In this document: one piece after another, positions 7,298 to 28,380 of the stretch
Position numbering within the stretch: position 1 is the stretch's first letter
Layout of the letters: every line of letters begins with the position of its first letter
Source: Ruminococcus albus 7 = DSM 20455
Lineage (GTDB): Bacteria > Bacillota > Clostridia > Oscillospirales > Ruminococcaceae
Length of the DNA stretch: 32,000 nucleotides
Assembly (NCBI RefSeq): GCF_000179635.2
Contig: NC_014833.1
Location: forward strand, 2,580,001-2,612,000
Reading direction: 5' to 3'
Notes under the pieces: generated by a model
Told to the model about the DNA's origin: nothing
The model's input: the letters and a program-made list of their open reading frames with translations, nothing else
Databases searched by the model: none
Made by a program: the position numbers and the translations under genes

Positions 7298-7308
7298 AAA
7301 ATTTTTAC

Positions 7309-9000
<1,692 letters not shown>

Positions 9001-9165: not shown

Positions 9166-9220
9166 TCTATCATCCCTTCCAAAATAATTATTTAAGTCCA
9201 AATAAACGCACAATAATACA

Positions 9221-9249
9221 TTGCAAATCACCCCAATTTGTGATATAAT
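9221..9249 (+). promoter_or_regulatory. sigma70-type promoter of the STAND NTPase gene
   Basis: TTGCAA (9221-9226), 17 nt, TATAAT (9244-9249) with TGn extended -10. Confidence 0.55.
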
Positions 9250-9279
9250 AGTTGTATAATTCTTTGTAGGAGGCACCCC

Positions 9280-11592: not shown

Positions 11593-12073
11593 TGACCGTC
11601 TGCACGATGACCGCAACAGGAGCAAGGCTGTACCAAAGCCACGCAAGCCCCGTCGCATGACTTGCGGTATTCAGCTTTTCGGCGCTCTTATCCACCGCCG
11701 TTTCGATATTAGTTACGGAGGTTTTGGTGTGTTCAAGCATCTTATCGACCGCCTCGTTCTGCTTCTTCATAATGTTTGTTAGGTTGTCGTTAAGCACCTT
11801 AGCGGTGTCTTTTCTTACGCTTTGCCGGTACTCCTCCTGCAAGTCGAGCAGGCGCAGTTGGCTCTCTTTCATCTCGCGGAGCTCGTTCTGAGTATCGCGG
11901 GTGTAGTTCGTCAACACCTCGTAAAGCCTGTCCACAGTCGCGAGCAGTAGCGTGATCTGGTACTTGTCCTCTGCTGCCCGACGGTCTTCCTCTCTCAAAT
12001 GCTGCACCTTCTGCCACAGGCTCGACAATTCTTCCTGCGGCGTGGCTCCTTGTGTATTTCGTGGCAAGCTCAT
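11567..12073 (-). CDS. coiled-coil protein with a C-terminal TM helix (Mob accessory?)
   Basis: Own RBS AAGGAAGGGG and an in-frame stop just upstream of the ATG. C-terminus is GLAWLWYSLAPVAVIVQTVIMVW. It lies inside the 3' tail of the relaxase ORF in another frame. Confidence 0.5.
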   Translation of the reverse strand: MSLPRNTQGATPQEELSSLWQKVQHLREEDRRAAEDKYQITLLLATVDRLYEVLTNYTRDTQNELREMKESQLRLLDLQEEYRQSVRKDTAKVLNDNLTNIMKKQNEAVDKMLEHTKTSVTNIETAVDKSAEKLNTASHATGLAWLWYSLAPVAVIVQTVIMVWQHFH

Positions 12074-12908
12074 ATTCTATCCCCTTCCTTGTGTATAGAT
12101 CTCCTAACCGACTTCCGCGCACCGAAACCGGTTCTCCATTCTTATTCAAATACTGCGGGTGCCGATACGAAACCGTATTCCCTGCGACCCTGCACTCAAC
12201 ATTATAATGCTCCTTCAGCCCGAGAATGACATCATCAAAAGTATGATTCAGCGGATCGGCGATCTCAATTCTTATTACCTCGCGCAGCTCGTCCTTGAAG
12301 CTCTCCGCACCGCGCTTTTTCATCTGCGCTTCACCGAAAGTCAGCTTATCTTTCTGACGTCCCATGTCATGGTTATAGAAATTGTCTCGAACCGAATTGG
12401 TAAAACCATATTCAAGGCATTTTCGCCCAAAGTATTCAGACATTTCATATAAATCCTTTTGACTTCTGCGATATGACCTTCCCGTATTCATATTGCAATT
12501 ACTGATGAGAAAATGCACATGAACATGGTCTGTATCGGTATGCACCGCGAAAAGCACCTCAAAACCTTTGCTGTGTATAAAATGTTCAGCGAAATCCAGC
12601 GATATCTCGAATGCGGTTTTGTGATCGACATTATCCAACGGGTGAAATGATATTGACATTTTATGCGCGAGGATCGTATTCTTCTTGTGCTTTGAATAGC
12701 TTTTCCCGTTCAGCTTGCGGGTGACGAGTATATTATTTGCAAAGTTCTCACGGTTGCAGCCGAGCGCGGTGTAAAGCTCGATATCGGTTTTCTTCACACC
12801 GCTTTCGACCTGCTGTTTTTGCCGACCGAGCATATACTCCGCTGCGGCTTTCAGCGCCCCGACCGACTTGCATGGCGCATAATCGACATTCACATTCCCG
12901 AACGGCAT
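11799..12908 (-). CDS. relaxase / mobilisation nuclease (MobA/VirD2 family); the last ~90 codons are probably non-native read-through
   Basis: Has the HTDTDHVHVHF histidine triad (HxDxxxHxH) and a conserved N-terminal region. Its ATG overlaps the mobC stop (TAATG). The C-terminal tail (AAGRIVEPVAEGAAFERGRPSGSRG...) is Arg/Gly/Ala-rich and overlaps the 11567-12073 gene. Confidence 0.8.
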   Translation of the reverse strand: MPFGNVNVDYAPCKSVGALKAAAEYMLGRQKQQVESGVKKTDIELYTALGCNRENFANNILVTRKLNGKSYSKHKKNTILAHKMSISFHPLDNVDHKTAFEISLDFAEHFIHSKGFEVLFAVHTDTDHVHVHFLISNCNMNTGRSYRRSQKDLYEMSEYFGRKCLEYGFTNSVRDNFYNHDMGRQKDKLTFGEAQMKKRGAESFKDELREVIRIEIADPLNHTFDDVILGLKEHYNVECRVAGNTVSYRHPQYLNKNGEPVSVRGSRLGDLYTRKGIEYELATKYTRSHAAGRIVEPVAEGAAFERGRPSGSRGQVPDHATARDCGQALRGVDELHPRYSERAPRDEREPTAPARLAGGVPAKRKKRHR

Positions 12909-13246
12909 TATCCCTCCGTGAGCGGCTTGTCAAGGAATGCCGAAAGCCTGTCCATCGCCGCACAGAAGCTGTTCTGATAATACCGGAGCGCAGTCTGCGC
13001 CTTGTCGCTCTGAAACGTATTAGCGAGATACGCCACCTGATTCAGATTTACGCCGATCTTCCGCAGTTCGTGCATTATCGCTTTGACATCATCATCGAAG
13101 AGATATACCTTAATATCAGTATCACGAACCATTTTTACGAAGAAATCAGTCTTTCCGAGACCACTTGCGGTACGTTTTTTCTCGAATGCCGCAAGTTCTT
13201 CCTTGGTCAGCCTTATGTTAAACTGCTTGTCTCTAACTCTATTCAT
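12908..13246 (-). CDS. mobC: MobC-family relaxosome accessory protein
   Basis: RHH-like N-terminus FNIRLTKEELAAFEKK and the characteristic GVNLNQVAYLAN motif. AAAGGAG RBS present. Confidence 0.8.
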   Translation of the reverse strand: MNRVRDKQFNIRLTKEELAAFEKKRTASGLGKTDFFVKMVRDTDIKVYLFDDDVKAIMHELRKIGVNLNQVAYLANTFQSDKAQTALRYYQNSFCAAMDRLSAFLDKPLTEG

Positions 13247-13258
13247 TTAGCTCCTTTC

Positions 13259-13645
13259 TCAGCCGCCGACAAAATCCATATCAATGTCATCGGCTGAAAC
13301 GTCGTTATCATTATTATTCGTTATGTTTATCGTCGGCGCAGCGCTGTATGGCATGACCATTTTCGTAAAGCACGCCGCGAGGAACGACGGAAGTGCTTTC
13401 TCAACACCGTTTTCCACCGCATTTACTATCTGCTCTACAAAACGTTCCTCTCGCTCGCGAGTCTCGAAATACGGGTCATCTTTCCGTCGGTAATACCGCT
13501 TGAAATACTCCGTAACAGCCATCGCGACCGCATGACTGTATGACTTGAACTCGTCCTTGTCCATACTATGCAAGTATTCCCAAGCCTGACGGTCGAGCGG
13601 CTTGTCAATGTTGAAACGCAGCGTTGTGCATTTTATGTTGCTCAT
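13259..13645 (-). CDS. ParR-like / RHH centromere-binding adaptor (hypothetical)
   Basis: Lies immediately downstream of the parM-like gene (1-nt gap) with a GGAGGG RBS. N-terminus is TLRFNIDKPLDRQAWEYL and the tail is acidic. Function is inferred from position only. Confidence 0.4.
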   Translation of the reverse strand: MSNIKCTTLRFNIDKPLDRQAWEYLHSMDKDEFKSYSHAVAMAVTEYFKRYYRRKDDPYFETREREERFVEQIVNAVENGVEKALPSFLAACFTKMVMPYSAAPTINITNNNDNDVSADDIDMDFVGG

Positions 13646-13646
13646 A

Positions 13647-14564
13647 TTATCCCTCCTTCAACTGCTGAAAAGCAATAGTTTCGTAGCCCTTAGCAGCGGC
13701 ACAGATGTCATCAATTATCGTTACACGGCTTGCATCAAACTCTCCGAAATTCTTGACGATACAGCCGCCTCCGCCTGCAACATAGAGCCGCATCAGCTCG
13801 GGGTCATACTCATACTTTGCAAGGGTCTGGAGCAGATCAGTGCAATATGATTTGATAGTATCGGTTATGCAATTCAAATATTTTTCCGAAATATCCGCCT
13901 TGCCTGTTCTTATCACCTGCTCAATAATGCTCTCGTCGATTTTCGTGCAAAACTTGTCCATTACCGCATTTTTCGCAGATATCACGCACTGATTTACGCC
14001 GAGCTTTTCCGTGTAGCACTTGCTCTCGATAGGGCGTTTGTTGTTGATGAACATGATGTTCATGGTTCCGTTGCCGATGTCCGCGAGCATATTTACGCCG
14101 GTCAGCTGCGTCAGACGGTCGATCACGGCAGGATACCCCTGCGGATAGATCGAGCAGCCAACAATATGCAGCTTGTACGCCACATCATTGAACGTGAATT
14201 TGACGTTCTTATTCTTCGTAATGTACCTGCGGAAATCCTCTCTCTGCGTCTTGACCCAAGTCAGTGGTAGCCCTGCTGCGATATGCACATCGGCTTCGGT
14301 GCAGTAAGTACATTTCAGTTCCTGAGCTATTGCCACAAGCGTCAGTAAGTAAAAATCCTCGTCCATGCTTTTATCAGCGATAAACGCCTTATGTCCTTCG
14401 CCTATGCGATAATACATACTGTCATACTGCAAGATATTTCCATCAAAGGTCGGCTTTGTAGGGTATGCCGTTATCCCCGTCGGCATGATCGTGTTTGCTG
14501 TTTTGATGTTGCCATATCCGTGGTCAACGCCTATGATCTTCGTTCCATTCTTTAGTTCTCTCAT
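13647..14564 (-). CDS. parM: ParM/StbA-family actin-like segregation ATPase
   Basis: Start at MRELKNGTKIIGVDHGYGNIKT after GGAGGG. Phosphate-binding motifs GVDHGYGNIK and LADIGNGTMNI. Confidence 0.75.
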   Translation of the reverse strand: MRELKNGTKIIGVDHGYGNIKTANTIMPTGITAYPTKPTFDGNILQYDSMYYRIGEGHKAFIADKSMDEDFYLLTLVAIAQELKCTYCTEADVHIAAGLPLTWVKTQREDFRRYITKNKNVKFTFNDVAYKLHIVGCSIYPQGYPAVIDRLTQLTGVNMLADIGNGTMNIMFINNKRPIESKCYTEKLGVNQCVISAKNAVMDKFCTKIDESIIEQVIRTGKADISEKYLNCITDTIKSYCTDLLQTLAKYEYDPELMRLYVAGGGGCIVKNFGEFDASRVTIIDDICAAAKGYETIAFQQLKEG

Positions 14565-14782
14565 TAAAAATCCCTCCGTTTCATGTTGTGACGGTTTTAG
14601 TATCGCTCTGATACCTCCCGTCAAGAATAATTATACCAGCGATCTCACGATTTGACATTGACTCAAAAATGACTGAAAAATGATTGTTTTTACGCTGCAA
14701 AAACACCTCTGATACCAAAAATCGGCGGGCGCATACGCGCCTGAAATCAAATTGAAGTAAAAATGATATTAAAAATATGCAC

Positions 14783-14825
14783 AAAAAAACAGCGGTACCG
14801 AACATAGTGCGTTTCGGTATCGCTG
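14783..14825 (-). terminator. strong hairpin plus T-run (orphan terminator / insulator)
   Basis: 13-bp stem CAGCGGTACCGAA (14790-14802) / TTCGGTATCGCTG (14813-14825, one mismatch). On the minus strand it is followed by T7. No minus-strand gene lies upstream of it. Confidence 0.4.
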
Positions 14826-15364
14826 TTATGCGTTTTATTCGGTTTTCGGTGCCAGCCTTGAAAACGGTGAGGCAAAAACATTTCATGCTGCGTAAATGGC
14901 AGCATAGGCAGGTAGCACCGCTGGCTATACAAACCCCGACTTTGGGCGGGCTTTGCATAGGCTGCGCGGTACTACCTGCTCAGAGGGGAAGACCCCTCCG
15001 AGACCTCCCCTAAAGCAGAGCATATGCTCTGTAAAAGCAAGGCTTCTGCTGAGGTGTGTGCAGAAGCCTTTGATCCTGCTAATTACATATATAGAAAGAT
15101 ATATAAGCTAATTACAGTGTTTATAAACAGATTATTACTCTTCGTTCATCACTTAGACACAAACGTCTTGCTCCTTATTCCTTTGATCATAATAACGTTT
15201 TGAATGATTGCACATACAGATGAGAAATAAGCTTAGAAGATAACCTAAATCATTACGTTATGAGTTTTGGACCGAGTGAATATGAAAACAGAAATTAAAT
15301 AACTTTTATTTAGGCATTTATGAAATTGATGGAATAACCTTTAATTGTGATAAATAGCGAAAAA

Positions 15365-15427
15365 TTTAGTTTGTACTAAAAAAATCACCGCAAATCTGTT
15401 GACTTTCAACGGAATTTAATATATAAT
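15365..15427 (+). promoter_or_regulatory. promoter of the C-protein/methyltransferase operon with an upstream palindrome (candidate C-box)
   Basis: TTGACT (15399-15404), 17 nt, TATAAT (15422-15427). The palindrome TTTAGTttgtACTAAA is at 15365-15380. Confidence 0.5.
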
Positions 15428-15482: not shown

Positions 15483-15719
15483 GTGGCTGTGAGTTACAGA
15501 AAACTATGGCATTTAATGTTGGATAAGAGAATTAGTAAAACTGAACTTGAAAAGTTGGCAGGTATTTCAGATTATACTATGCGAAAACTAAATAGGGATG
15601 ATGACGTATCAACTGAAGTTCTTACAAGTATATGCGCTGCACTGAATTGTGAAGTTCAAGACATCGTTGACTTCATACCTACAAAAAATAGTAATTTTGT
15701 GTTTGAGGATGACAAATGA
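15483..15719 (+). CDS. XRE-family HTH protein (controller/C-protein-like)
   Basis: GTG start (15483 or 15489) after GGGGGTGA. HTH region is ISKTELEKLAGISDYTMRKLNRDDDVSTEVLTSICAALNC. Its stop overlaps the next ATG (ATGA). Confidence 0.75.
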   Translation: MAVSYRKLWHLMLDKRISKTELEKLAGISDYTMRKLNRDDDVSTEVLTSICAALNCEVQDIVDFIPTKNSNFVFEDDK

Positions 15720-17509
15720 AAAAGACAGAACAATCTATTAAAAAGTTATTTATGAAGCCGCTTTCCTCAACTCGCGGTGGTGCATTTTATAATGCTTTCC
15801 CATATCCTACTAAGATTTCTCCGGAAGCAATTGCCATATATATCGCTTCAGCAACTAAGCCAGGTGAAAAGATACTTGATGCGTTTTCCGGAAGCGGGAG
15901 TACTGGAATAGCAGCTCTGCTTTCGGAATATCCGACTAAAAAAATGATTACAACAGCAATGGCACTCGGGATAAAACCAACTTGGGGTAGCAGAAATGCA
16001 GTACTTTATGAGATTGGGACTTACGCTACTTTTGCAACGAGAACGCTTACTAACCGGCTCAAGGCTAAGGATTATTCGATTGCCGTCAAGAGCTTTATTG
16101 AAAAAGCTAAGGAACTTGTTGGTGGTTATTATTTTGCCAAATCGCCTAATGGCTCATCTGGAACAATCCGCTACGCCATCTGGACTGAGTTTTTAGTTTG
16201 TCCTGAGTGTGGGGCTGAAATTGACTATTTTACGAATGGAACATCGAGAAATCCAGCAACGTTCAAAAAATCTGTCGAATGCCATCATTGCCGAAAAACC
16301 TGTTCAGTAGACGAAATGACTTTTGCAACTGAAGAATACTACGACAAGCTACTAAAAAGAACTATATCTCGTAAAAAGCGAAAGTTAGCATGGATTTATG
16401 GAACAAGCAAAGGCGAAAACTGGGATCGAGCAGCGACCACGGAAGACGAAGCTTTTATAAGAAAACTCGAAAATGAGTTTGTTCCAAATGAGTTACCACG
16501 GGAAATTAAATGGGGAGATTTGCACCGTGCAGGATATCATTATGGGATCACGCATCTCCACCATTTTTATACTATTAGAAATTATCGAGTGATGTCAGCA
16601 CTTTGGGAACTGGCAGGAACGTATCCAGAACGCGAGGCTGATGCGCTCAAGCTCCTCCTTCTTAGCTATAACGGAGCGCACTGCACTCTTATGACCAGAG
16701 TTGTTGCTAAACATAACGCAAAGGATTTTGTTCTGACCAGTGCCCAAAGCGGAGTACTTTATATTAGCAAGCTGCCGGTAGAAAAAAATATCTTGCTCGG
16801 ATTGCAAAGAAAGGCAAAGCCGTTTGAGGAATGTTATAAGATGCTCGAAAACTGTCACGGAACGATCGAGATTAGGAATGTTTCGAGTACAAAAATGATT
16901 GAACTAGATAAGAGTATCGACTTTGTGTTTACTGATCCTCCGTTTGGAGACTATATTCCTTATGCTGAAGTGAACCAAATCAATGAGCTTTGGCTTCCGA
17001 AGGTCACAGAGCGGTCTGAAGAAGTGATTATTAGCAACGCTCAGCAAAAGAATGAAGATAATTACCGAGATATGCTAACAAAAGTTTTCAGAGAGATAAA
17101 TCGCGTCGCTACAGATGATTGTTCAATTGCTATGGTTTTCCATGCCGCAAAAGCATCGATTTGGGGGACATTCGCAGATGCTGTCAAGTCAGCTGGACTA
17201 GAGATTGAGCAATCTAGTTTTCTTGACAAAACACAGGCGAGCTTTAAACAAGTTGTCTCAAAAACAGCTGTTCAAGGCGACCCCATCTTTCTTCTTAAAA
17301 AAAGTGAATCAGGAAAAACGGTGATTATAAATGAAGAATTAATTCTTAGGCAAGTTGTCGCGGACAATCCACATGAAACGGAAATTGAACAACGCCATTG
17401 TTATTCTCTATATATAGGAAAATGCATGGAAAACGGTATTAGTGTACAAAGAGACGCTGTTCAGGTATATGAGTATATTCGTAATCTGCGGGAGGCAGAA
17501 ACATTATGA
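15716..17509 (+). CDS. Zn-ribbon-containing DNA methyltransferase (COG1743/DUF1156-style; N6-A or N4-C)
   Basis: AdoMet motif ILDAFSGSGSTGIAA at about aa 55. Zn ribbon CPECG...CHHCRK at about aa 165-195. Motif IV FVFTDPPFGDYIPY at about aa 405. C-terminal region MVFHAAKASIWGTFADAVKSAGLEI. Confidence 0.85.
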   Translation: MKKTEQSIKKLFMKPLSSTRGGAFYNAFPYPTKISPEAIAIYIASATKPGEKILDAFSGSGSTGIAALLSEYPTKKMITTAMALGIKPTWGSRNAVLYEIGTYATFATRTLTNRLKAKDYSIAVKSFIEKAKELVGGYYFAKSPNGSSGTIRYAIWTEFLVCPECGAEIDYFTNGTSRNPATFKKSVECHHCRKTCSVDEMTFATEEYYDKLLKRTISRKKRKLAWIYGTSKGENWDRAATTEDEAFIRKLENEFVPNELPREIKWGDLHRAGYHYGITHLHHFYTIRNYRVMSALWELAGTYPEREADALKLLLLSYNGAHCTLMTRVVAKHNAKDFVLTSAQSGVLYISKLPVEKNILLGLQRKAKPFEECYKMLENCHGTIEIRNVSSTKMIELDKSIDFVFTDPPFGDYIPYAEVNQINELWLPKVTERSEEVIISNAQQKNEDNYRDMLTKVFREINRVATDDCSIAMVFHAAKASIWGTFADAVKSAGLEIEQSSFLDKTQASFKQVVSKTAVQGDPIFLLKKSESGKTVIINEELILRQVVADNPHETEIEQRHCYSLYIGKCMENGISVQRDAVQVYEYIRNLREAETL

Positions 17510-19296
17510 CGCAACCAAAGACAATCCAACATAAAAAAAGGTTTGGACAGTTTTTTTCTGGAAAGACGGTAGCAGATATGCTCTTCTCTTTACTTCCTCA
17601 AGGCTACAAATGGTCAAGTGTTGTCGACCCAATGGTTGGAATCGGTGATATGTTAGTTGCTGTTCAAGAGAATACCAAAGACTGTCCAACAATGCTTGGA
17701 ATTGAGATTGATAAGGTAGTAGCCAAGAAATGCGCTGAGCGAGTTCCGAATGCGAGTATTCTTTGCTGTGATGCGTTCAAAAATGATAATGTCGTCACAT
17801 CAAATGGGTTTGATCTTGTCATTACGAATCCTCCTTATGTTAGGTATCAATTGCAATACGATGACAAGGTAATGCCATCGGCACGTGAAATACGAGAAAA
17901 CCTAATTCGTCAGATTCAACGGATTCCTTATCTCTCTGAAAAAGAACGATTTCTATTTCTACAGCTCGCAAAAAACTATTCCGGATTGTCTGATATGGCA
18001 GTTCCGGCATGGCTGCTATGTGCAGCCTTGGTAAAAAAGAATGGCTATTTAGCTATGGTTGTACCAGAAACTTGGCTAAATCGTGATTATGCTTCGCCTA
18101 TACAATATTTGCTTTTAAAATGCTTCAGAATAGAAACTATTGCAATCGATAAGAACGCAAGCTGGTTTCCAGAAGCACTGGTCAAGACTTGTCTTGTTGT
18201 TGCTAAGCGAGTTGAAATACAGCCGCTACATGAAACAGAAAAACTTATTACTCGGATCATAGAAAACAAGAGGATTTATAAACAGCCAACAACTACGCTT
18301 TTCTACTATCTCAAAGGAGCAAAGGAAGCAAACAAGTGGTGCTTGTCGGAAGATGCAACTTTTTTCTCCAAGCGCTTGGAATTACCGCATGATCTTGCGG
18401 AGATCCTCAAAAGAACCGAGCCTGTTGAATTTATGACCCTTGCAGAAATGGGTATTGAATGTGGTCAGGGCCTTAGGACAGGAGCTAATGATTTTTTTTA
18501 TATCAAAATCAAAAAGGCTGAAAGAAAAACGATTAGGATTCATAGCAGGGTATGGGATCACGGGGGGAGAGATTATACTTTCCTAAAAGACGATATCATC
18601 CCTGCATTGCAGAACAGGGGAGAAATCAAAGGATTGGTTGTTACTCCAGGTAAGCTCAAAACAGGTGTTATTTATCCGCAGAGCGAAGTCAAGGGAGACT
18701 TGCAGAATTATATAGGCTCGGCAGAGAAATACATCGATACAAAGGGACGACGGTTCAAGGATTATAGTGCTGTTGTACCAAACGAAAAGAAAGATGGAGA
18801 TAGAATTGTCCGCGAGTGGTTCCGACTCCCGAAAATGGCAAATCGTCACCTTCCGAATCTTTGCATTACAAGAGTCTCGGCAGGAATTCCCGAGTGTTTG
18901 TTTGTTGAGCAAAATGAAAGTGAACCAATTGCAATTGACGCAAATATGGTAACAATCTGGGGGCATGATTCTCAGATGGTTTGGGGTGTTTTCGCATTGC
19001 TAAATTCAACATGGAGTAAACTATCACTTGAACTAATCTGCACCGTTATGGGTGGTGGTGCGCTAAAAGTCGAAACGAGTCATGTAAAGAAGCTTCTTGT
19101 TCCAAAGCTCAACTATGACCAGCTAAATAGATTAGGAAATATTGGTAAGGAATTGTTTAACCAAGAATGCATGACTGAAGGAATTCAAGATAAAATTGAT
19201 AATATTATCGCTTCTGCTTTGGGTGCAAAAGAAATAACGTCCAAAATGCGGAGCCTTTTGGAGCGGAAATATCAAGAAAGGAGCACACGATCGTGA
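17506..19296 (+). CDS. gamma-class N6-adenine DNA methyltransferase (Eco57I-type)
   Basis: Motif I VVDPMVGIGDMLVAV and motif IV DLVITNPPYVRYQ, followed by an ~300-aa C-terminal target-recognition-like region. ATGA overlap with the upstream gene; GGGAGG RBS. Confidence 0.85.
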   Translation: MTQPKTIQHKKRFGQFFSGKTVADMLFSLLPQGYKWSSVVDPMVGIGDMLVAVQENTKDCPTMLGIEIDKVVAKKCAERVPNASILCCDAFKNDNVVTSNGFDLVITNPPYVRYQLQYDDKVMPSAREIRENLIRQIQRIPYLSEKERFLFLQLAKNYSGLSDMAVPAWLLCAALVKKNGYLAMVVPETWLNRDYASPIQYLLLKCFRIETIAIDKNASWFPEALVKTCLVVAKRVEIQPLHETEKLITRIIENKRIYKQPTTTLFYYLKGAKEANKWCLSEDATFFSKRLELPHDLAEILKRTEPVEFMTLAEMGIECGQGLRTGANDFFYIKIKKAERKTIRIHSRVWDHGGRDYTFLKDDIIPALQNRGEIKGLVVTPGKLKTGVIYPQSEVKGDLQNYIGSAEKYIDTKGRRFKDYSAVVPNEKKDGDRIVREWFRLPKMANRHLPNLCITRVSAGIPECLFVEQNESEPIAIDANMVTIWGHDSQMVWGVFALLNSTWSKLSLELICTVMGGGALKVETSHVKKLLVPKLNYDQLNRLGNIGKELFNQECMTEGIQDKIDNIIASALGAKEITSKMRSLLERKYQERSTRS

Positions 19297-22200
19297 ATAG
19301 AAATCAACTTAGAGACTATGCAATACAAGCGCAAGCTATGATTGATTCAGGTGCTGTTGAAGACAAAATTCGCCACTACTTCTCTTCTAGATTGTTGAGT
19401 ATTTTTCCAGATTATCCTTGGTGGGTTCAAGCACATATGCAAGGAACGGAGGAACACGTTCATTTTTCTACAGCGGGTAGCAATCGTGAGGGGTTTGTTG
19501 ACGCTGTGGTTGGAAAAACTGCCATTGAATATGAGAAGAATTTGATGATTCAAAGCATATTTGAGGAAGGCTATCATCAGGTCAAAGAGTATTCAGCTGC
19601 GCTTTGCAATATTGGTATACCCGAAACTGAAGTTTTAGGAGTGCTGTCAGATACAGTCAGATGGTACGGATTTAAAGTAAGAGTTATTGGAGAACAGACA
19701 GAGGGGATTTTGCTCGGCCCAGATGATGTAGAACTTGAAAGAATAATGTTCGTTGATCTTTCAATTGAAACTGACGAAGAATATTCTCGATTCGAACAGT
19801 TTATAGCTCAGTTCATGGCGCGAGAAGAATCGCGTATTCTAAACGCTAAGACACTTGTAATGGATTTTGGTGTTGATAGTAACTTCTACAGATCATTTAT
19901 CGGAGCATTTTCTGAAGCAACTAATACAGCAATGGCAGAAAAGCCAGATTATGCAGAACTAATCAAACAGGTGTGGCAAAACTTTATCGCATATCTCGGT
20001 GTATCAGATTATGGCTCATTTTCAACAGAAACATACGTGAGCGAGTTTTATCTTGTGACAGTTGCAAAAATACTCTGCGCCAATATACTTGCGGGTAGAG
20101 CAATCATAAGCTCAGACGACGAGATCAAGGCGATACTTAATGGCGAACACTTCTCAAGGCAAAACATATATAATTTCGTTGATTACGATTATTTTGGATG
20201 GCTTAATAGAAGCCCATATGTTGATATTATCATTCCTAGCGTCAGGGAGATGCAAAATCGGCTCAAAGCTTATGATTTTTCTCGGCTTGGAGATGAGGAT
20301 ATATTTGGAAGACTTCTCGCTCAGCTTGCCAACAAGGAGCATCGGCTTATGCTGGGACAGGAGTTCACACCGCATTGGATTGCCAGGGATATTGTTAAGT
20401 ATAACATAAATAAGATTGGAGACGAGGTTCCACACATAATGGATATGTGCTGTGGATCAGGAGTGTTCCTGATTGAATCGATTAATGCTGTACGAGAGAA
20501 ATATTCAATCTCTTCGGATAAATACGATGCTAAGAAGGATGCTATCATTTTTTCTGCTGTGATGGGGTTTGATATTGATCCATTGGCAGTAATGCTTGCA
20601 AAGGTCAATTGGATTATGACAATGAGGGATTTGTTCCCTTTACATTCGGGAAGTATTACAGTTCCGATTTATCATGCTGATTCCCTATTTGTTGCTACGC
20701 CGATTACACATAAAATGCCAACGCAGGATGAGGATTATTATATCATTACACTTAATCATCAACAAATCAGAGTACCTGCATTCCTGTTTTCTACGATGTA
20801 CAGAAAGGTGTTTGACTCTTTTATATCGAAAGTCTATAGGGTAGCAATGGCGAGAGCGAAACAAGCAGAAGATACAATAGATGCATTTGATGCTGAATCG
20901 CTAATCAACGCCGTAGAACGCGAAGGTGAGATTGAACTTGGAAAGCATAGGAAAGCTGAGCTTTCTTTGACGGCAAATCAAATGGTTTTTCAACTTGAAA
21001 GTCTCCAGCGTCATGGACAAAATGGTATCTGGCACTTTATTATCAGCAACAGTTATAGACCGGGGCTTACAGAAAAGCAGTTTAATTGCATCGTTTCTAA
21101 TCCTCCTTGGATGGCAATGAGCAAGCTGGCAGATAATCCTTATAAGAATGCACTTCATGAGATTGCAGAAAAGTATTCGATTCAGCCTAAAGGTGCTGCA
21201 CATCCGCACATGGAGCTTGCTACGATTTTTTTAGTCAGTTCCATTGACCGTTATCTTCATGACGGAGCATGCTGGAGTTATGTCATGCCTGCAAGTCTGA
21301 TGAGCGGACTTAATCACGAACCGTTTAGGAAAGAAAAGTTCATAACTTCGGACGCCGAATTAGAAGCGAAAGTCGAGGCAATTTGGGAACTTCCAGTTGA
21401 TATGTTTAAAAACAAAGCAGTAGTGCTTTCTGGTAAAAAAACTACTCAGGTGCCAGAGACAATCGACGGGCGCGTTTATGAAGCAATGAATAATTATAAA
21501 GACTGTATATATACACTCAATCGTCAAGGAAACCGTAGTGCTTGGACAAATAGAGGTAGCACTGTTGATGTTGCTGATGTAATTGCTAGTGATAGGCTCA
21601 GTTTTTTACAAGGATGTGACATGTTTCCTAGAACAGCGCTGTTCCATCAATTTGTTCCCAGACCGAACGGAAACTGGGATATTCGACCGATTGACCGCAC
21701 TGGTGATTTATGGTATCTCGTTAGTGATAGCAAGAAGAATATCTGCAATGACCTTATTTCAGAGGATTTTGATAACGAGTTTATTTATGATACGTTTATT
21801 TCTAAGCACTTATCTCCATTCATTATGGCTGAGCCAGCAAAAGGATTAATTCCTGGGCGTAAGGTGGATGGAGTTTGGAAACCACTATATGCAGAGGATT
21901 TAGCGCTTTTAAACGCTGGAACGGAATATGTTTTCCAGCAGATTTCAGATGCGATCAAGCAAAACCTAGTTCAATTTCTTAACGAAACAATAAATATTTA
22001 TGGTAAACTATATAGGCAGAATTTTTCAATGAAAAATTATCTGGTACTTTCAAGTGCGAGCGGATCGAATCCGTGCGCAGCATACCTAGACCTTAGAAAT
22101 CTCAACAGAAACAGGCTCGTGATTGATCAAACACTATATTGGTATCTTGCTGAAACAGAAGACGAAGCAATCTATATTTCTGGACTTCTTAACAGTTCTG

Positions 22201-22505
22201 CACTATGGGATGCCATATCAGATTTCCAACCAGAAGGAGGTTTTGGTAAGCGTCACATACACACTCTGCCATATAAGATTATTCCGTCATTCGATTCAGA
22301 AAACGATGTACATATAAAAGTAGTTGATGCTACAAAAAATTTGATACATGAATGGCAAACAGTTTGCATGAACGATATATATCGGAATCTTATCAAGCCA
22401 AATGGAGGTACGCTTTCCAGCAGACGTAAAAAACAGCAGAGCAAGATACGTGAGCTTACTTCATATGAAATATATGCAACGGCTTGTATGGAATTATTAA
22501 GATGA
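19293..22505 (+). CDS. 1070-aa MmeI/PglX-like protein: N-terminal PD-(D/E)xK-like region, helical spacer, N6-adenine methyltransferase, then TRD
   Basis: GTG start with GTGA overlap, AAAGGAG 9 nt upstream. Contains GFVDAVVGKTAIEYEKNL (aa 67-84), QEFTPHWIA, motif I MDMCCGSGVFLIES and motif IV CIVSNPPWMAMS. Confidence 0.8.
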   Translation: MNRNQLRDYAIQAQAMIDSGAVEDKIRHYFSSRLLSIFPDYPWWVQAHMQGTEEHVHFSTAGSNREGFVDAVVGKTAIEYEKNLMIQSIFEEGYHQVKEYSAALCNIGIPETEVLGVLSDTVRWYGFKVRVIGEQTEGILLGPDDVELERIMFVDLSIETDEEYSRFEQFIAQFMAREESRILNAKTLVMDFGVDSNFYRSFIGAFSEATNTAMAEKPDYAELIKQVWQNFIAYLGVSDYGSFSTETYVSEFYLVTVAKILCANILAGRAIISSDDEIKAILNGEHFSRQNIYNFVDYDYFGWLNRSPYVDIIIPSVREMQNRLKAYDFSRLGDEDIFGRLLAQLANKEHRLMLGQEFTPHWIARDIVKYNINKIGDEVPHIMDMCCGSGVFLIESINAVREKYSISSDKYDAKKDAIIFSAVMGFDIDPLAVMLAKVNWIMTMRDLFPLHSGSITVPIYHADSLFVATPITHKMPTQDEDYYIITLNHQQIRVPAFLFSTMYRKVFDSFISKVYRVAMARAKQAEDTIDAFDAESLINAVEREGEIELGKHRKAELSLTANQMVFQLESLQRHGQNGIWHFIISNSYRPGLTEKQFNCIVSNPPWMAMSKLADNPYKNALHEIAEKYSIQPKGAAHPHMELATIFLVSSIDRYLHDGACWSYVMPASLMSGLNHEPFRKEKFITSDAELEAKVEAIWELPVDMFKNKAVVLSGKKTTQVPETIDGRVYEAMNNYKDCIYTLNRQGNRSAWTNRGSTVDVADVIASDRLSFLQGCDMFPRTALFHQFVPRPNGNWDIRPIDRTGDLWYLVSDSKKNICNDLISEDFDNEFIYDTFISKHLSPFIMAEPAKGLIPGRKVDGVWKPLYAEDLALLNAGTEYVFQQISDAIKQNLVQFLNETINIYGKLYRQNFSMKNYLVLSSASGSNPCAAYLDLRNLNRNRLVIDQTLYWYLAETEDEAIYISGLLNSSALWDAISDFQPEGGFGKRHIHTLPYKIIPSFDSENDVHIKVVDATKNLIHEWQTVCMNDIYRNLIKPNGGTLSSRRKKQQSKIRELTSYEIYATACMELLR

Positions 22506-22712
22506 ATATGTAACAACACGTTTTATTTTTGAATTAATAAATCTATTAGAAGAATCAAACCATATGTTAAAAACAAACTCGATTCTTGCTGTATCGAAGT
22601 TGGTTTTCTTTTCATGTTATCGTTATTCACTATTGCTTTCAATTCGAGCAATATGGAACGAGCGGGACGAGTTATATTGCCATGTGAAGAGTAAAAGAAA
22701 AGGATCTGCGGA

Positions 22713-22741
22713 TTGACTTTTGCATGAGTGTCTGGTATATT
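22713..22741 (+). promoter_or_regulatory. sigma70-type promoter for the PHP-ATPase module
   Basis: TTGACT (22713-22718), 17 nt, TATATT (22736-22741) with TGn extended -10. Confidence 0.5.
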
Positions 22742-22884
22742 ATAAATTAGGTTTTGTTATCATTTTTTCTGCCTATTACTATGCTATCATTTATGCAAAA
22801 CAGGAACTAGATAAGTGGAAAGATATGAAATTAATTTCTATTACAATAGCTGTTTGTATAATTGTCAAGAGAGGTGAACTTGCT

Positions 22885-24924
22885 TTGAAAAAGTTAGATC
22901 TTCATATACATACCAAAAAATCAGTAAGTGATCATCCATTTGAATTCTCAATTGACAAGTTGAAAGAATACGTCACTCAAATGGGAATTGATGGAATCGC
23001 TATTACTAACCATAACCTATTTGATAAAGATCAATTCTTTGCAATTCAAAATGAATTAAATGGAGTTTGTGTTGTATTGCCTGGTATTGAAATTGATTTA
23101 GGCATTAAGTCAGATGGCCATATCATCTGCATTACTACACAAGATGACATCGATGATTTTTCTCAAAAATGTGATAAGATAAATGCCTTAATAAAAGAGC
23201 AAAGCGACTTTGTAAAGTATGATGATTTTAAGTTGATATTTACTGATTTAGGTAAATATCTATGGATTCCGCATTATGACAAAGATCCCATTCTAGACAA
23301 AGAAATAATCAAAGATATGGGAGAAAATATAAAATGCGGCGAAGTCGGAAGTGTAAAGAAATTTATATACAATCAAAACAATCCTGAATGTCTCATACCT
23401 GTTTACTTTAGCGATACTCGTTTTACGGCCGATTTGCCCAAACTTCCTTTAAGGCAAACCTATTTTGATATCGATGAAATAAATGTTGCTACGATTAAGC
23501 GCTCTCTTTTGAGTCGCACTCATGTTTCTTTGACGGAGGAAGAAGGTCATAGCCTTTTCTATGTATTGCCAGATCTAAAAATATCTACTGGATTAAATGT
23601 TATCGTTGGTGGTAGATCGTCTGGAAAAACTTACACACTAAATGAGATTTCCAAAGCCAATGATAATGTTAAATACCTAAAGCAATTTTCGCTAATTGAA
23701 CAGGATCCAGAAACATCAGCAAAAATATTTGCAGACAAAATTGCAAATAAAAGAAATAGTTTTGCTGAAGAATACTTCGATCTTTTTAAAGAGGCCGTCT
23801 CATCAGTAAAAAACATCTCTATTAAGGATGACGAAGCAAAAATCGAACAATACATAACCAGCCTTGTAAAATGCGCTAAAGAAACTGATAGGGTTGATAT
23901 GTTTTCAAAGTGTGCCTTATATAACGAAGAAACATTTCCCAAAAGAAAACTTGAAGGCTTAGAGAAGTTAATATCAGCCACTGAAACACTACTTGGAGCA
24001 AGAGAGTATAGAGAGCTTATTGATAAGCATATCCCCTACAGCTCTCTTGTTTCGTTGTTGCATGATTTAGTGTATAAATATCGTCAAGAGAAAGAACTCT
24101 CACTAAAAGAAAAATGGGTTGGAGATTTAGTCAAAGACGTTAAACGCGCACTTAAAACACGTAGCGCAACAACTGAAATATCGGAAGTTGATTTTTATGA
24201 ATGTCAGCTTAATAGAAAGAGAGTGCAAAAGTTTAACAAGTTAGCAAAGCTTGTTAAGCAAGAGGAAATAATTAGCAATCAAGAAATTGAAAATTTTAAT
24301 GTTCAAGCTAAGAAAAGAGCTTTTAAAAATGCTCAGGAACTTAAGGATTTTAGTGGGCGTAGGAATATTAGGTTTTCTGATGTTATTGATCTTTACGATA
24401 ACAATCCGCAAGAGTATCTTCTGGCATTAAAAGAGATGGAGAACATTCCCGATTCGGATTATTATAAATATTTTGCTTATATCGAATATGCCGTTTTGAA
24501 TCAATATGGTTTTGAAGTATCTGGCGGCGAACGTGCGGAGTTTAATTTACTTCAAGAAATAAATGATGCATATAGATATGATTTATTACTTATTGATGAG
24601 CCAGAATCATCTTTTGACAATATTTTCTTAAAAGAAAAGGTGAATCATATTATCAAAGAACTTTCTAAGACTATGCCCGTAATATTAGTTACTCATAATA
24701 ACACGGTTGGTGCCTCAATAAAACCTGATTACCTAATACATACTAAGCGAATTATCGGAAAAGATATACGTCATGAAAGATACTGTGGTCTGCCAAGTAG
24801 TAAAAATCTAATATCCAATTCTGGTGAATCAATAAAAAATATCGATGTGATGATGGATTGTTTAGAGGCAGGACAAGCTACATACGATGAAAGGAGAAAC
24901 GATTATGAACTACTTAAAAATTAG
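22885..24924 (+). CDS. PHP-domain phosphoesterase fused to an SMC/ABC-type ATPase with a coiled-coil insert
   Basis: TTG start 8 nt after GAGGTG. An in-frame ATG at 22825 would add a hydrophobic N-terminal segment. PHP motifs: LDLHIHT, ITNHN, GIEID, IPHYD. ATPase motifs: Walker A GGRSSGKT, signature VSGGERAEF, Walker B LLLIDEPESSFD and LVTHNN. Confidence 0.8.
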   Translation: MKKLDLHIHTKKSVSDHPFEFSIDKLKEYVTQMGIDGIAITNHNLFDKDQFFAIQNELNGVCVVLPGIEIDLGIKSDGHIICITTQDDIDDFSQKCDKINALIKEQSDFVKYDDFKLIFTDLGKYLWIPHYDKDPILDKEIIKDMGENIKCGEVGSVKKFIYNQNNPECLIPVYFSDTRFTADLPKLPLRQTYFDIDEINVATIKRSLLSRTHVSLTEEEGHSLFYVLPDLKISTGLNVIVGGRSSGKTYTLNEISKANDNVKYLKQFSLIEQDPETSAKIFADKIANKRNSFAEEYFDLFKEAVSSVKNISIKDDEAKIEQYITSLVKCAKETDRVDMFSKCALYNEETFPKRKLEGLEKLISATETLLGAREYRELIDKHIPYSSLVSLLHDLVYKYRQEKELSLKEKWVGDLVKDVKRALKTRSATTEISEVDFYECQLNRKRVQKFNKLAKLVKQEEIISNQEIENFNVQAKKRAFKNAQELKDFSGRRNIRFSDVIDLYDNNPQEYLLALKEMENIPDSDYYKYFAYIEYAVLNQYGFEVSGGERAEFNLLQEINDAYRYDLLLIDEPESSFDNIFLKEKVNHIIKELSKTMPVILVTHNNTVGASIKPDYLIHTKRIIGKDIRHERYCGLPSSKNLISNSGESIKNIDVMMDCLEAGQATYDERRNDYELLKN

Positions 24925-25312
24925 TAATGGAAAGGGTTCCTTTAGAAATAAAGACGGCGAATATAAGGAAATAGATACTATCACTAAGGAAGATATACTT
25001 TATTTACTTGACGAGGCGACGGATTCAACAAGCAATTTTGAAATGGATGAGATTACGGACGATTCTATTAAAAACGAAGCACATAAAATTATTTATAAAA
25101 GTATTTACTCAAAATTCTCTAATCTATTAAATAACAAAAAGCAATTTCTAGACGAGTGTGATGGGCTCTACAAAGATGCACTTCAAAAATACAAACCAAA
25201 AGAAGAAGTTATGACAAGCAACGGCAGTAGTTCAGATAATATCGCTCAAGTCGATGTATCATCATTCAAAAGTAAGCGTATAACCCCCAGCACCTACCCC
25301 ACCGAAGTCTAA
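24905..25312 (+). CDS. small acidic hypothetical protein overlapping the PHP-ATPase gene by 20 nt; native C-terminus displaced by the IS66 insertion
   Basis: ATG at 24905 after AAAGGAGA. The last 13 codons are read from the IS66 left end. The reconstructed native end is ...SSFKMK, with the stop at 28289-28291. Confidence 0.5.
   Translation: MNYLKISNGKGSFRNKDGEYKEIDTITKEDILYLLDEATDSTSNFEMDEITDDSIKNEAHKIIYKSIYSKFSNLLNNKKQFLDECDGLYKDALQKYKPKEEVMTSNGSSSDNIAQVDVSSFKSKRITPSTYPTEV
25264..25271. repeat. IS66 target-site duplication, left copy (ATTCAAAA)
   Basis: Identical 8-mer directly abutting both IRs. Confidence 0.85.
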
Positions 25313-25412
25313 TAAAGTATAATAAACTCCAAGGAACACCATGAAGTAAATTGAATAATCCAAATTGATCCATGGAGTTCATTGGAGACGATTAGACAAG
25401 GAGGTAACAGGT

Positions 25413-25730
25413 ATGGACAAAACAACATCCATCACAACAATCAAAAAAGAAATGCAGCTTCAGGAATGGTCTGCGCAGATCAAAGCACAGCAGGCAAGCG
25501 GTCTGACGATCCGGGAATGGTGCAAAGAAAAAGGGATCAAGCCAAACACGTATTACAACCGCCTAAGAAAAGTTCGTGAAAAGTATATCGAAAATTCTCC
25601 GACCATCGTTCCTGTATCAGTTCCTTGCTCAAACGAAAATATCCGCATTGAGAAAAACGGACTTCAAATATCTCTTCCGGCAGATATATCTGCGGACACT
25701 CTGACCGCTTTGGTGCATGAGCTATGCTGA
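25413..25730 (+). CDS. tnpA: IS66 accessory protein TnpA (orf1)
   Basis: MDKTTSITTIKKEMQLQEWSAQIKAQQASGLTIREWCKEKGIKPNTYYNRLRKV (HTH). AAGGAGG RBS present. Confidence 0.8.
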   Translation: MDKTTSITTIKKEMQLQEWSAQIKAQQASGLTIREWCKEKGIKPNTYYNRLRKVREKYIENSPTIVPVSVPCSNENIRIEKNGLQISLPADISADTLTALVHELC

Positions 25731-26079
25731 ATGATCTGGCAGCGGACGCACAGGTCTATCTTGTTACGGGATACACCGACCTTCGACGCGGGATAGACGG
25801 ACTTGCGACTATCGTTCAGGCTCAGCTTCGACTTGACCCGTTCTCGAAAGCATTGTTTTGTTCTGCGGCAGACGTTGTGACCGCATCAAAGGTCTGCTGT
25901 GGGAGGGCGATGGTTTTCTGCTGTTGTACAAGCGCCTTGACAACGGAAGATTCCAGTGGCCGCGCAGTGAGACCGAAGCAGTAATGCTCACATCTCAGCA
26001 AATTCGCTGGCTTCTGGAAGGCTTGAAAATAGAGCAGCCGAAGGCTATCCGTGAGGGAAAGCCGGGGGCGCTGTATTAA
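25724..26079 (+). pseudogene. tnpB: IS66 TnpB (orf2), frameshifted
   Basis: VYLVTGYTDLRRGIDGLA...SKALF is in one frame and FCGRRCDRIKGLLWEGDGFLLLYKRLDNGRFQWP is in the next. The shift lies in a T-run near 25853-25858. Confidence 0.8.
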
Positions 26080-26171
26080 GGCAATACTTACCGAATATTC
26101 AGAATATGTGCTTGAAAAGCCCCTCTTTTCGTGGTATCATTAAAGTATCATCACGAACGGAGGGGTGCTTT

Positions 26172-27682
26172 ATGTCCGAACCAAATATGACATCGGAAAT
26201 TGTATCGCTCCGTAATGAAAACGCTGTTCTCAAGGAAGAACTAGCACTTGCCAATCAGCAGTTAGCGTGGTTCAGAAAGCAGATATTCGGAAGAAAACAG
26301 AGCAGACATCTGTTGTTATGGAAAAGGAGTTCGGTGTTCAGCTTTCCATGTTCGGAAACAATGAAGAAAATCCGCAGCTAAATCTGCCGAAACAATTACT
26401 GTTCCCGAACACAAGCGCAAGAAAAAACGCACTCACGATGAATGGATGAACAATCTGCCTGTAAAAGAAGAACATCACAAAATTGACAACCCGGTATGCG
26501 AAATATGCGGCGCCGAAATGGAAGAACTGACTCCCGAAAAGGCTTACGATGAACTTATATTTACGCCGCCAAAATATCATATCCGCAGGCATATAGTACA
26601 TAAGTACAAGTGTCCCGAGTGCGGAGAAAAGCCCGAAGAAAGGGACGAACCTTGTCATATCATCCGTGCGCCATATCCTCACGCTATGATCCCGGGAAGC
26701 TATTGCTCTCCCGAACTTCTGGCTCATATCATCTACGAAAAATATGCAAAGTCAGTACCTCTGCACCGTCAGGAAAAGGACTTTAATTCCAAAAACATAC
26801 CTCTGCTCAAAGCGACTATGTCTAATTGGGTAGGCACTGCTGCCGAAAAATGGTGTTTGCCGATTGTGGAGAAAATGCATGAGACGCTTATCGCAGGGCA
26901 GATGATCCATGCCGATGAAACGACCGTTCAGGTGCTTCACGAGGAAGGCCGAAAGCCTACCACGACATCAAGAATGTGGGTCTACTGCAACGGCAAAATG
27001 AATGACAGGAGCATCATCATTTTCGATTATCAGCCGACACGAAAGGGTGAGCACGCCTCGAATTTCCTGAAAGGATTTATCGGCTATCTTATCTGTGACG
27101 GATACGATGCCTACAATGCAGTCGAGGGTGCTAAGCGATGCGGCTGTATGACTCATGCAAGGCGTGGTTTTATTCAGGCTCTTCCGAACGACCAAAAGCT
27201 GCACAGCACTTCTGTTGCGGCAAAGGCAGTAGAATATTTCAACAAGATATATCACGAAGAAAAATCTGCTTGCCGACAGCTCCACAGAATACAGATATAA
27301 ACAGCGCCTTGTGAAGGTAAAGCCTTTGCTTGACGAGTTTTTTGCGTGGCTTGAAAATGTTCAGGTCAGTGGTAAGGGCAAGCTGACAGATGCAGTAAGA
27401 TATGCGTTGAATGAACGGAAATATCTTTACACGTTTCTTGAAAACGGAGACGTGCCTATCGACAACAACAGAGCCGAAAACGCAATAAGACCGTTTGCGT
27501 TAGGCCGAAAAAATTGGCTGTTTTCAAATACAGCAAACGGAGCCAGATCAAGTGCAACGCTGTATTCGATCATTTCAACTGCACAGGCGAACGGTGTTGA
27601 TGCTGAGAAATACCTGACCGAGCTGTTTTCACAGCCTGCGGGAACGATATTATTACCATGGAGGGAAGAAAATGAAACTTAG
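26172..27682 (+). pseudogene. tnpC: IS66 DDE transposase TnpC, interrupted by at least three frameshifts
   Basis: Leucine-zipper N-terminus, Zn-finger CEICG...CPECG, HADETTVQVL and the C-terminal NRAENAIRPFALGRKNWLF are spread over four frames/ORFs (26172-, 26267-, 26446-27300, 27311-27682). Confidence 0.85.
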
Positions 27683-28211
27683 TAATGAAGATGCAAAGCT
27701 GTTTTATGAACTGTTTTTTCCACTGCTTGACTATGTGAACAGAGAATATCATATACTTCCTGAGGAAGATTATTTCGGGCAAGGAATGATCGACCCACAG
27801 GATGCTGCGGAGGTTGCCCACTTTTTATGGGAACGGACATGGATCATTGATGATTATCTTGAGCGATCGGATCTGCCCGAATAACACATGGAGATACTTA
27901 AAAGCTGGAAAGGGTGCATCACCGGCAGATTTATCATTGAGCGACATTGGAAAAAGGGATCGGTATTTATATCGATCGATGACAATTCTGTTTTTCTTGT
28001 AAACGGCATTGTCAGCAGTTGGGAGGAAATGCTGAGAAATGCACCGATGCCAACTTTGCTTGATGCAGCGCTTCTGCCATTTAAAAATGCGATCATTTCC
28101 GATGGCCTTGTATCTGTTATGCCGATCATATTCGGTCCGAACAGCAAAGCTGATTTCAAAGAAATATACATGGACGCAAAGAGAAATGGAGAAATCAAAG
28201 CCAGAATATGA
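27672..28211 (+). pseudogene. IS66 passenger ORF of unknown function with an in-frame TAA at 27885-27887
   Basis: The 27672-27884 and 27888-28211 ORFs are in the same frame, separated by a single stop. Both lie inside the IRs, downstream of tnpC. Confidence 0.45.
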
Positions 28212-28216
28212 TGTTA

Positions 28217-28250
28217 CAGCCGGGTGTTATCTGCCCGGCTGTTTGCTTTT
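28217..28250 (+). terminator. rho-independent terminator inside the IS66 right end
   Basis: Stem CAGCCGGG (28217-28224) / CCCGGCTG (28234-28241) followed by TTTGCTTTT. Confidence 0.55.
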
Positions 28251-28275
28251 ATGATGCGGGGGGTTATACGCTTAC

Positions 28276-28283
28276 ATTCAAAA
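28276..28283. repeat. IS66 target-site duplication, right copy (ATTCAAAA)
   Basis: Identical to 25264-25271. Confidence 0.85.
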
Positions 28284-28320
28284 TGAAATAATATAAAAAC
28301 ACAGTGAAAAAATGACAAAA

Positions 28321-28353
28321 ATCGGGCAGCATATTTGCCACCCGATTTTTTTG
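28321..28353 (+). terminator. rho-independent terminator of the PHP-ATPase module, now separated from it by the IS
   Basis: Stem ATCGGG...CCCGAT (28321-28346) followed by T7. Confidence 0.55.
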
Positions 28354-28380
28354 ATTGATGTTTGATCGATTCGGCTGTCA

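Follow-up and report, generated by a model that had tools for sequence, protein, structure and literature searches.

A PHP–SMC-type ATPase gene and its overlapping partner in Ruminococcus albus 7 belong to the phage-defence candidate PDC-M49

A 32,000-nucleotide stretch of Ruminococcus albus 7 = DSM 20455 (assembly GCF_000179635.2, contig NC_014833.1, positions 2,580,001 to 2,612,000; hereafter the window, in whose own coordinates positions are given) carries a long gene for a PHP phosphoesterase joined to an ATPase and, overlapping its end, a short gene for an acidic protein. This locus raises the question of which system the two genes, here called A and B, represent, and whether it is one already described. 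The initial annotation, made from the sequence, had called the pair a defence-like module, compared it with the anti-phage system Ppl and did not identify it as a catalogued one. We found that the locus is a real and already catalogued member of the PADLOC phage-defence candidate (PDC) PDC-M49. The two genes are as follows.

22885-24924, + strand: gene A (PADLOC PDC-M49A), TTG start, 679 aa, PHP phosphoesterase fused to an SMC/RecN-type ABC ATPase
24905-25312, + strand: gene B as present (PADLOC PDC-M49B), ATG start, 135 aa

The PADLOC profile PDLC04680 (PDC-M49A) matched A along its entire length (positions 1-674 of 674, E 8.6e-289, 957.8 bits), and PDLC04678 and PDLC04679 matched A as well. 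The profile PDLC04683 (PDC-M49B) matched B at positions 1-135 of 135 (E 2.8e-93), followed by PDLC04682 (E 2.9e-35). Both PDC-M49 profiles are therefore matched by adjacent genes on the same + strand; the profiles, gene order and strand of A-B are those of PDC-M49, and family-level differences were none. Given these full-length matches, and a distribution that is sparse, mobile and in or next to restriction-modification (RM) genes, the label of a defence-like module was a reasonable one. The PDC set comprises 145 single- and multi-gene 'guilt-by-embedding' candidates that Payne et al. added to PADLOC after finding the genes embedded within BREX, DISARM or type I restriction loci (10.1101/2024.01.29.577857). 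Other authors have called PDC systems unpublished or never verified.

Protein A is a PHP phosphoesterase and an SMC/RecN-type ABC ATPase in one chain, as had been proposed. Every PHP and ATPase motif quoted in support of that proposal was located at its expected coordinates, and the domains and motifs of A are listed below.

22885-23574, + strand: PHP domain, residues 1-230, with H7, H9, D16, H43, E69, H79, H130, D177 and R179 invariant
22897-22914, + strand: PHP motif DLHIHT
23002-23019, + strand: PHP motif ITNHNL
23083-23097, + strand: PHP motif GIEID
23266-23280, + strand: PHP motif IPHYD
23608-23631, + strand: Walker A, GGRSSGKT, residues 242-249, from alignment and motif search
23707-24258, + strand: helical insertion between the ATPase lobes, residues 275-458 (about 185), from DSSP on the AlphaFold2 (AF2) model
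24517-24543, + strand: ABC signature, VSGGERAEF, 297 residues from Walker A
24583-24618, + strand: Walker B/D-loop, LLLIDEPESSFD
24691-24702, + strand: H-loop, THNN

Motif conservation was evaluated in an alignment of 33 homologues with 49–89% identity. In addition to the PHP residues listed above, the ATPase positions G242-K248 (Walker A), Q267, S546-E552 (signature), D571-E572, D578 and H604 were invariant. Because these residues are invariant across all 33 homologues, the motifs in A are not chance matches. The metal-ligand motifs of the PHP superfamily (PF02811) are present in A on a PHP fold, with the exception of R179, where His is canonical. The ligands were assigned on what we take to be the YcdX and PolX motifs, without alignment to these two proteins. 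In FSDTR (residues 175-179, 23407-23421), the Arg is invariant throughout the family, hinting at an altered third metal site.

Structure prediction agreed with this architecture. The AF2 model of A had a mean pLDDT of 86.5, and Foldseek comparison with the Protein Data Bank (PDB) matched the N-terminal part to the PHP domain of Pol III alpha and to the PHP phosphoesterase 3e0f (probability 1.00). The ATPase part was matched to RecN, MukB, cohesin/condensin/Smc heads (SMC3, Smc), JetC, PARIS AriA and Rad50. The ABC ATPase spans residues 232–611, its lobes are split by the helical insertion and it has Q-, D- and H-loops, as in the SMC/Rad50/RecN class. In sequence searches against the PDB, the PHP domain returned noise only, and the whole-family profile matched generic ABC ATPase segments only. 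Of the profile searches suggested earlier, the PADLOC search recovered PDC-M49 for both genes, whereas in Pfam the families SMC_N and AAA_21 matched A weakly and PHP stayed below its gathering threshold; PF02811 is nevertheless precomputed for many homologues of A. The estimate of about 300 residues between Walker A and the signature was accurate, but the roughly 300 residues of coiled coil thought to fill this distance were not found: the insert has about 185 helical residues, and its longest helix has 43 (residues 385–427). No CxxC hook was found in the sequence of A. Residues 613-679 (24721-24921) form a C-terminal module of beta strands followed by a long helix, in which CLEAG, Y667, R670 and Y674 are invariant; this module is a candidate B-binding or dimerisation surface.

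The open reading frame (ORF) list gave a long + strand frame at 22720-24924, and an in-frame ATG at 22825 had been suggested as a start that would add a hydrophobic segment and possibly a membrane anchor. However, the PDC-M49A profile match starts at residue 21 of the version beginning at ATG 22825, which is TTG 22885, and nearly all of the 33 homologues begin with MKK(L/I)DLHIHT. The closest relative (locus L082, 89% identical) retains TTG as the start, together with the ribosome-binding site (stretch AGAGGTGAA...TTGAAAAAGTTAGATC), and has ATA in place of the upstream ATG. The profile boundary, the homologue N-termini and L082 together rule out the upstream start; therefore, gene A is 22885-24924 and the hydrophobic extension is excluded. 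Two signals precede it.

22713-22741, + strand: promoter-like TTGACT-17-TATATT with TG before the -10 element, a motif match only, 143 nt upstream of the A start
22871-22878, + strand: Shine-Dalgarno sequence AGAGGTGA of gene A, 6 nt before TTG 22885

The promoter-like site had been described as the module's own strong promoter. It is the best consensus match within 22400-25500 (10 of 12 positions), but the region holds no more such sites than shuffled sequences do, and the site is not conserved in L082. The region is the most AT-rich of the window, as stated previously, with a GC fraction of 0.31–0.34 across 22001-25500, the lowest value found. An Rfam scan of the whole window revealed no RNA family.

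The small ORF was listed at 24887-25312. The PDLC04683 match begins at its codon seven, and B therefore starts at ATG 24905, with a Shine-Dalgarno sequence inside the coding sequence of A.

24890-24897, + strand: Shine-Dalgarno sequence AAAGGAGA of gene B, within the A coding sequence
24905-24924, + strand: dual-coding overlap of 20 nt, read as YELLKN* in A and MNYLKI in B

An SD-like motif occupies this position in 45 of 71 loci. The nucleotides of the overlap are highly conserved (consensus T ATGAAATaCTTAAAaATTGA) and code for YExLKN* in one frame and MKYLKI in the other. B is acidic, with an isoelectric point of 4.96 (family median 4.78). Residues 1-97 form a conserved core, residues 98-122 a lineage-specific disordered tail, and residues 123-135 are encoded by an insertion sequence (IS) described below. 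In the alignment, the core is marked by AHxIIY, K70, F81-x-DE and K95-Y96, and the remainder is variable. AF2 modelled the core at pLDDT >90 as a three-stranded sheet, one helix and a helical hairpin, with the tail disordered. Relatives of B were found neither in Pfam nor in NCBIfam, and there was no fold match in the PDB (best E 2.1) or BFVD (best E 0.06). A profile search of 1.84 billion representative proteins yielded 473 members of the B family, and those among the matches listed are stand-alone proteins of roughly 70–170 aa. The only long match, P0316 (286 aa), was considered as a natural A-B fusion and rejected, as it is a frameshifted A fragment joined to B.

To define the family, one genome per species (~185,579 species genomes) was scanned with an alignment query, which gave 218 relatives, and 80 loci were fetched; a single-protein query of the same contig collection gave no match, so that the alignment query was required. 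There are more than 1385 homologues of A (clusters at 90% identity), most of them 677–681 aa long. The family occurs in at least 10 phyla and in ~0.1% of species genomes, with a patchy distribution. The loci came from Bacillota, Bacteroidota, Pseudomonadota, Chloroflexota, Spirochaetia and Planctomycetota, and further ones from Omnitrophota, Elusimicrobiota, Fibrobacterota, Saccharibacteria and others.

B directly follows A in all 79 loci with enough sequence, 74 of which have an overlap of exactly 20 nt. Pairwise identity in A correlates with that in B (r = 0.81; shuffle maximum 0.18), so the proposed check of whether the small ORF co-occurs with its neighbour came out in favour of a partnership, and partner B appears obligate. 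No third conserved gene was detected, the commonest other neighbour cluster being present in 9 of 81 loci. Members were found on 58 plasmids (45 from Enterococcus, 9 from Staphylococcus) and on 4 of the 2.9 million IMG/VR viral contigs; none occurred in 50,697 phage records, and a nucleotide search of E. coli genomes gave no match. This pattern fits one horizontally mobile accessory cassette and is not that of a core repair gene; the cassette is patchy and B is kept, rather than the gene being a housekeeping one in a conserved core-genome context with an unconserved neighbour. On the Enterococcus faecalis plasmid NZ_CP124954.1 (L001, 6369-8693), the annotation gives A 558 aa under the name 'histidinol-phosphatase', and 345 nt separate it from B. 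Here A seems to be truncated, whereas B is intact, and sister plasmids have a full 679-residue match.

The overlap, the acidity and the partnership of the small ORF thus agree with the initial annotation, but its length of 135 aa does not. It is an artefact of an IS66-family insertion, which had been missed, at the 3′ end of B.

25264-25271: left target-site duplication ATTCAAAA, 8 bp
25272-28275: IS66-family element of 3004 bp, its insertion point two codons ahead of the native B stop
28276-28291, + strand: right duplication ATTCAAAA, then the displaced native end of B (TG AAA TAA)
28317-28357, + strand: hairpin with an A-run and a T-run, -21.3 kcal/mol, z-score -3.5

The terminal inverted repeats GTAAGCGTATAACCCCC and GGGGGGTTATACGCTTAC are typical IS66-family ends (GTAAGCG...), and a 24-nt inverted repeat pairs 25269-25292 with 28255-28278. 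Pfam identified DDE_Tnp_IS66 and zf-IS66 in the element, which looks decayed; tnpB and tnpC are split into several ORFs. When the flanks were joined, they translated to VSSFKMK*, which is precisely how the 98%-identical homologue P0122 ends, and native B is therefore 124 aa long. The 135-aa B is a chimera whose last 13 residues are IS-encoded. As the PDC-M49B model (135 positions) spans this IS-derived tail, it was probably built from the R. albus protein B itself. The hairpin is probably the native terminator of the A-B operon, possibly bidirectional, which the IS has pushed 3 kb away. The insertion leaves the conserved core of B intact, and the module may still be functional. For cloning from the R. 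albus copy, the native end of B needs restoring.

Ppl, in which one gene encodes both a PHP and an ATPase domain (PMC11482910), is the best working analogy for A. Like A, it combines PHP and an NTPase in one polypeptide and is a mobile, sparsely distributed gene. In two articles that cite Xu et al. (Mol Cell 2026;86:180), Ppl is presented as an anti-phage single-stranded DNA 3′-5′ exonuclease that is triggered by depletion of nucleoside triphosphates (NTPs) together with 3′-OH ends and inhibited by NTPs (PMC13434339, PMC12904381). A literature search for validated PHP-ATPase defence systems returned only Ppl and Ophion, and a search for ABC ATPase classifications mentioning PHP fusions returned nothing relevant. 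The Ppl system was reportedly described by Gao et al. in 2020. The PADLOC matches included no Ppl profile at E <= 0.1 for whole A or at E <= 10 for the split domains, although HMMER filters may hide very weak ones; PADLOC-DB v2 presumably contains a Ppl model. Ppl is a single gene, whereas A has partner B in 79/79 loci. Judged by profiles and descriptions of Ppl, the ATPase of A also appears to differ from it in being an SMC/RecN-type ABC fold with a helical insert. By the profile tests run, A thus seems to lie outside Ppl, and the kinship suggested at the outset does not extend beyond shared architecture. Of the three features said to set this locus apart, the partner defines the whole family, and the promoter and the methyltransferase operon are local, L082 having neither.

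Other known systems share parts of this design. The NCBIfam model NF045780 (TrlF family AAA-like ATPase) arranges its domains as A does (residues 3-101 aligned with profile positions 7-117, and 232-346 with 306-427), but it has 944 positions against 679 aa, and its score of 70.9 bits (E 9.4e-20) against a cut-off of 350 places A outside the family. With SbcCD/Mre11-Rad50, A shares the logic of an ABC ATPase with a helical insertion working with a metal-dependent nuclease, and Rad50 heads are among the fold matches. However, that machine has two chains and a calcineurin-type Mre11/SbcD, whereas A has one chain with a fused PHP domain as its predicted nuclease; instead of a long coiled coil with a zinc hook, A has the ~185-aa insert lacking CxxC. 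SbcCD is also core and A is accessory and patchy, and B has no nuclease fold. Gabija (GajA/B), PARIS (AriA/B), Septu (PtuA/B) and Lamassu resemble A-B in combining an ABC-type ATPase and a nuclease effector in a small mobile operon, and weak PADLOC matches of A to AriA, HEC-01A, Mad3 and Mad8 cluster around the signature/Walker B. The effector in A is an N-terminally fused PHP, whereas these systems use TOPRIM, HNH, Cap4 or similar, and B is unrelated by sequence and fold to GajB, AriB, PtuB and LmuC. Pfam, NCBIfam and PADLOC gave no match of A to TOPRIM, GajA or OLD, which separates it from Gabija/OLD. PrrC and RloC are anticodon nucleases without a PHP domain or B-like partner. They also have an ABC-like ATPase fused to a nuclease and are embedded in type I operons, as A-B is in 6 loci; unlike them, most A-B loci are not embedded. 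The embedding of PrrC in restriction loci has been noted (10.1101/2024.01.29.577857).

Across the loci, the neighbours of A-B include type I HsdR/HsdS/HsdM, ResIII/SNF2 enzymes, HNH, GmrSD, KAP NTPases and Schlafen/AlbA_2 proteins, together with ordinary genes. In 6 of 80 loci (L011, L023, L025, L028, L053, L054), A-B lies between hsdM/S and hsdR on one strand, at positions about 7300-15400 in most of the six, and the hsdS stop overlaps the A start in L011, L025 and L028. The original basis of PDC-M49, embedding in type I restriction loci, was thereby recovered in these related loci, and type I genes are nearby in 13 of 80. The Ruminococcus sp. contig LBCK01000005.1 (L053, L054) carries two type I-embedded A-B copies about 26 kb apart in opposite orientation. 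In L082, the neighbours are three serine recombinases, an AAA_15/21 ATPase, a PemK toxin and a Schlafen-Fic protein.

The R. albus locus rides on an integrated mobile element, with a backbone followed by defence-type cargo.

7309-14624: mobile-element backbone, with defence-type cargo downstream
7309-8979: large serine recombinase with DUF4368
11799-12908: MobA/VirD2 relaxase
13647-14624: actin-like ALP_N protein
15716-22505: operon of three overlapping methyltransferase genes, upstream of A

As reported before, A follows the three-methylase operon, which ends at 22505, 380 nt from A. The first gene of the operon encodes a PglXI-like enzyme of 597 aa (E 3.6e-98), the second an Eco57I/N6_Mtase-like one of 596 aa and the third a type IIG-like one of 1070 aa (E 2e-59); a separate nuclease gene was not evident there. 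Between the recombinase and the relaxase, a 770-aa protein (9280-11592) shows weak similarity to STAND NTPases (AAA_16, nSTAND1) and has C-terminal TPR repeats; it had no PADLOC match.

Taken as a composite, the reading we favour, and hold to be somewhat probable, is that A-B is a defence module with a predicted nuclease, predicted gating by ATP and a putative regulatory role for B. By analogy with Rad50, RecN and SMC, the SMC/RecN-like ABC heads of A would dimerise around ATP and engage DNA. The N-terminal PHP domain, a predicted metal-dependent phosphoesterase, would cut or degrade nucleic acid as in PolX, Pol III alpha and Ppl, so that A might do in one chain the job of Mre11-Rad50 or GajA. 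B, an acidic protein of about 100 residues, would be made by translational coupling from the 20-nt overlap and would most likely bind A as a regulatory or sensing subunit, so that the nuclease stays inactive until invading DNA or a phage product is present. The cassette would move horizontally as a unit and act independently of the upstream methylase operon, since the 89%-identical pair of L082 lies beside serine recombinases without such an operon. A bolder proposal, which we put forward only tentatively, is that PDC-M49 is an immune system distinct from Ppl and not a variant of it: a single-chain 'Mre11-Rad50 analogue' in which the SMC-like ATPase licenses the PHP domain, B confers specificity as a sensor or safety catch, and the 20-nt overlap sets the A:B stoichiometry.

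Several observations weigh against a defence module of this kind. A literature search for PDC-M49 found the name in no paper, and no experiment, phenotype, mechanism or structure; trials of other PDC candidates, which did not include M49, were mixed, with 2 of 7 working in one study and neither of 2 in another. Pfam PHP scored 22.1 bits on A (E 2e-4) against a gathering threshold of 26.4, and the last canonical metal ligand of the domain (D-x-H) is replaced by the invariant Arg (D177-x-R179). The role given to B is a guess, since B has no recognisable domain or structural relative. Only a minority of the neighbours are defence genes, making the context signal weak, and with the C-terminus of B altered and the terminator displaced, the R. 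albus copy may be impaired.

Other functions have to be weighed on the same evidence. The embedding of A-B between hsdM/S and hsdR, with the hsdS stop overlapping the A start, the presence of type I genes near the pair in 13/80 loci and the position of the window pair directly after a three-methylase operon with a PglXI-like enzyme would all suit a PrrC-like RM accessory, that is, a latent nuclease checked by adjacent modification enzymes and freed by phage anti-restriction, with the methylase operon as its partner. We regard this as unlikely, because most loci, L082 included, have no adjacent modification system, no neighbour family occurs in more than 9/81 loci, and in the window A-B is preceded by a promoter-like site of its own and begins 380 nt beyond the methylase stop. 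Slightly less likely still is a toxin-antitoxin or addiction module, in which A would be a toxic nuclease and B its labile antidote, stabilising plasmids, mobile elements or RM operons with no dedicated antiviral role. B is indeed small, acidic, downstream, translationally coupled and strictly co-inherited with A, plasmids and mobile elements often carry the pair, and a truncated A beside an intact B on one Enterococcus plasmid fits the loss of a toxic gene. A classical type II antitoxin, however, is usually encoded first and has a DNA-binding domain, which B lacks, and an SMC-like machine of 679 aa driven by ATP exceeds the usual complexity of a toxin; many such modules moreover serve abortive infection, so that this explanation overlaps with defence.

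That the closest folds are RecN, SMC, MukB and Rad50 heads, and that PHP is a proofreading or end-processing exonuclease in Pol III alpha and PolX (10.1101/2025.09.30.679545), could also point to a DNA repair or recombination factor of the SbcCD/RecN kind, serving the host or the carrying mobile element and not immunity. A gene present in ~0.1% of species genomes, patchy over phyla, variable in context and not syntenic, plasmid-borne, restriction-embedded and absent from the phage records searched makes this improbable. Least credible of all is a plain Ppl homologue with an incidental small ORF. The union of PHP and NTPase in one chain is shared (PMC11482910), and the weak similarity to the TrlF profile, which may or may not correspond to Ppl, could be counted in its favour; on the other side stand the lack of any PADLOC Ppl match, even at E <= 10 on split domains, the TrlF score of 70.9 bits against 350, and B in 79/79 loci with a dual-coding overlap conserved across phyla. 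The ATP-gated defence module with a regulatory B thus remains the reading that we prefer.

As PADLOC already would label the locus PDC-M49, its value as a discovery is small. The family is of interest as a lead: at 90% identity it forms more than 1385 clusters, it reaches at least 10 phyla, and Enterococcus and Staphylococcus plasmids carry members of it. PDC-M49 joins a predicted PHP nuclease and an SMC-like ATPase to a small protein without known fold, in a gene overlap of unusually strict conservation.

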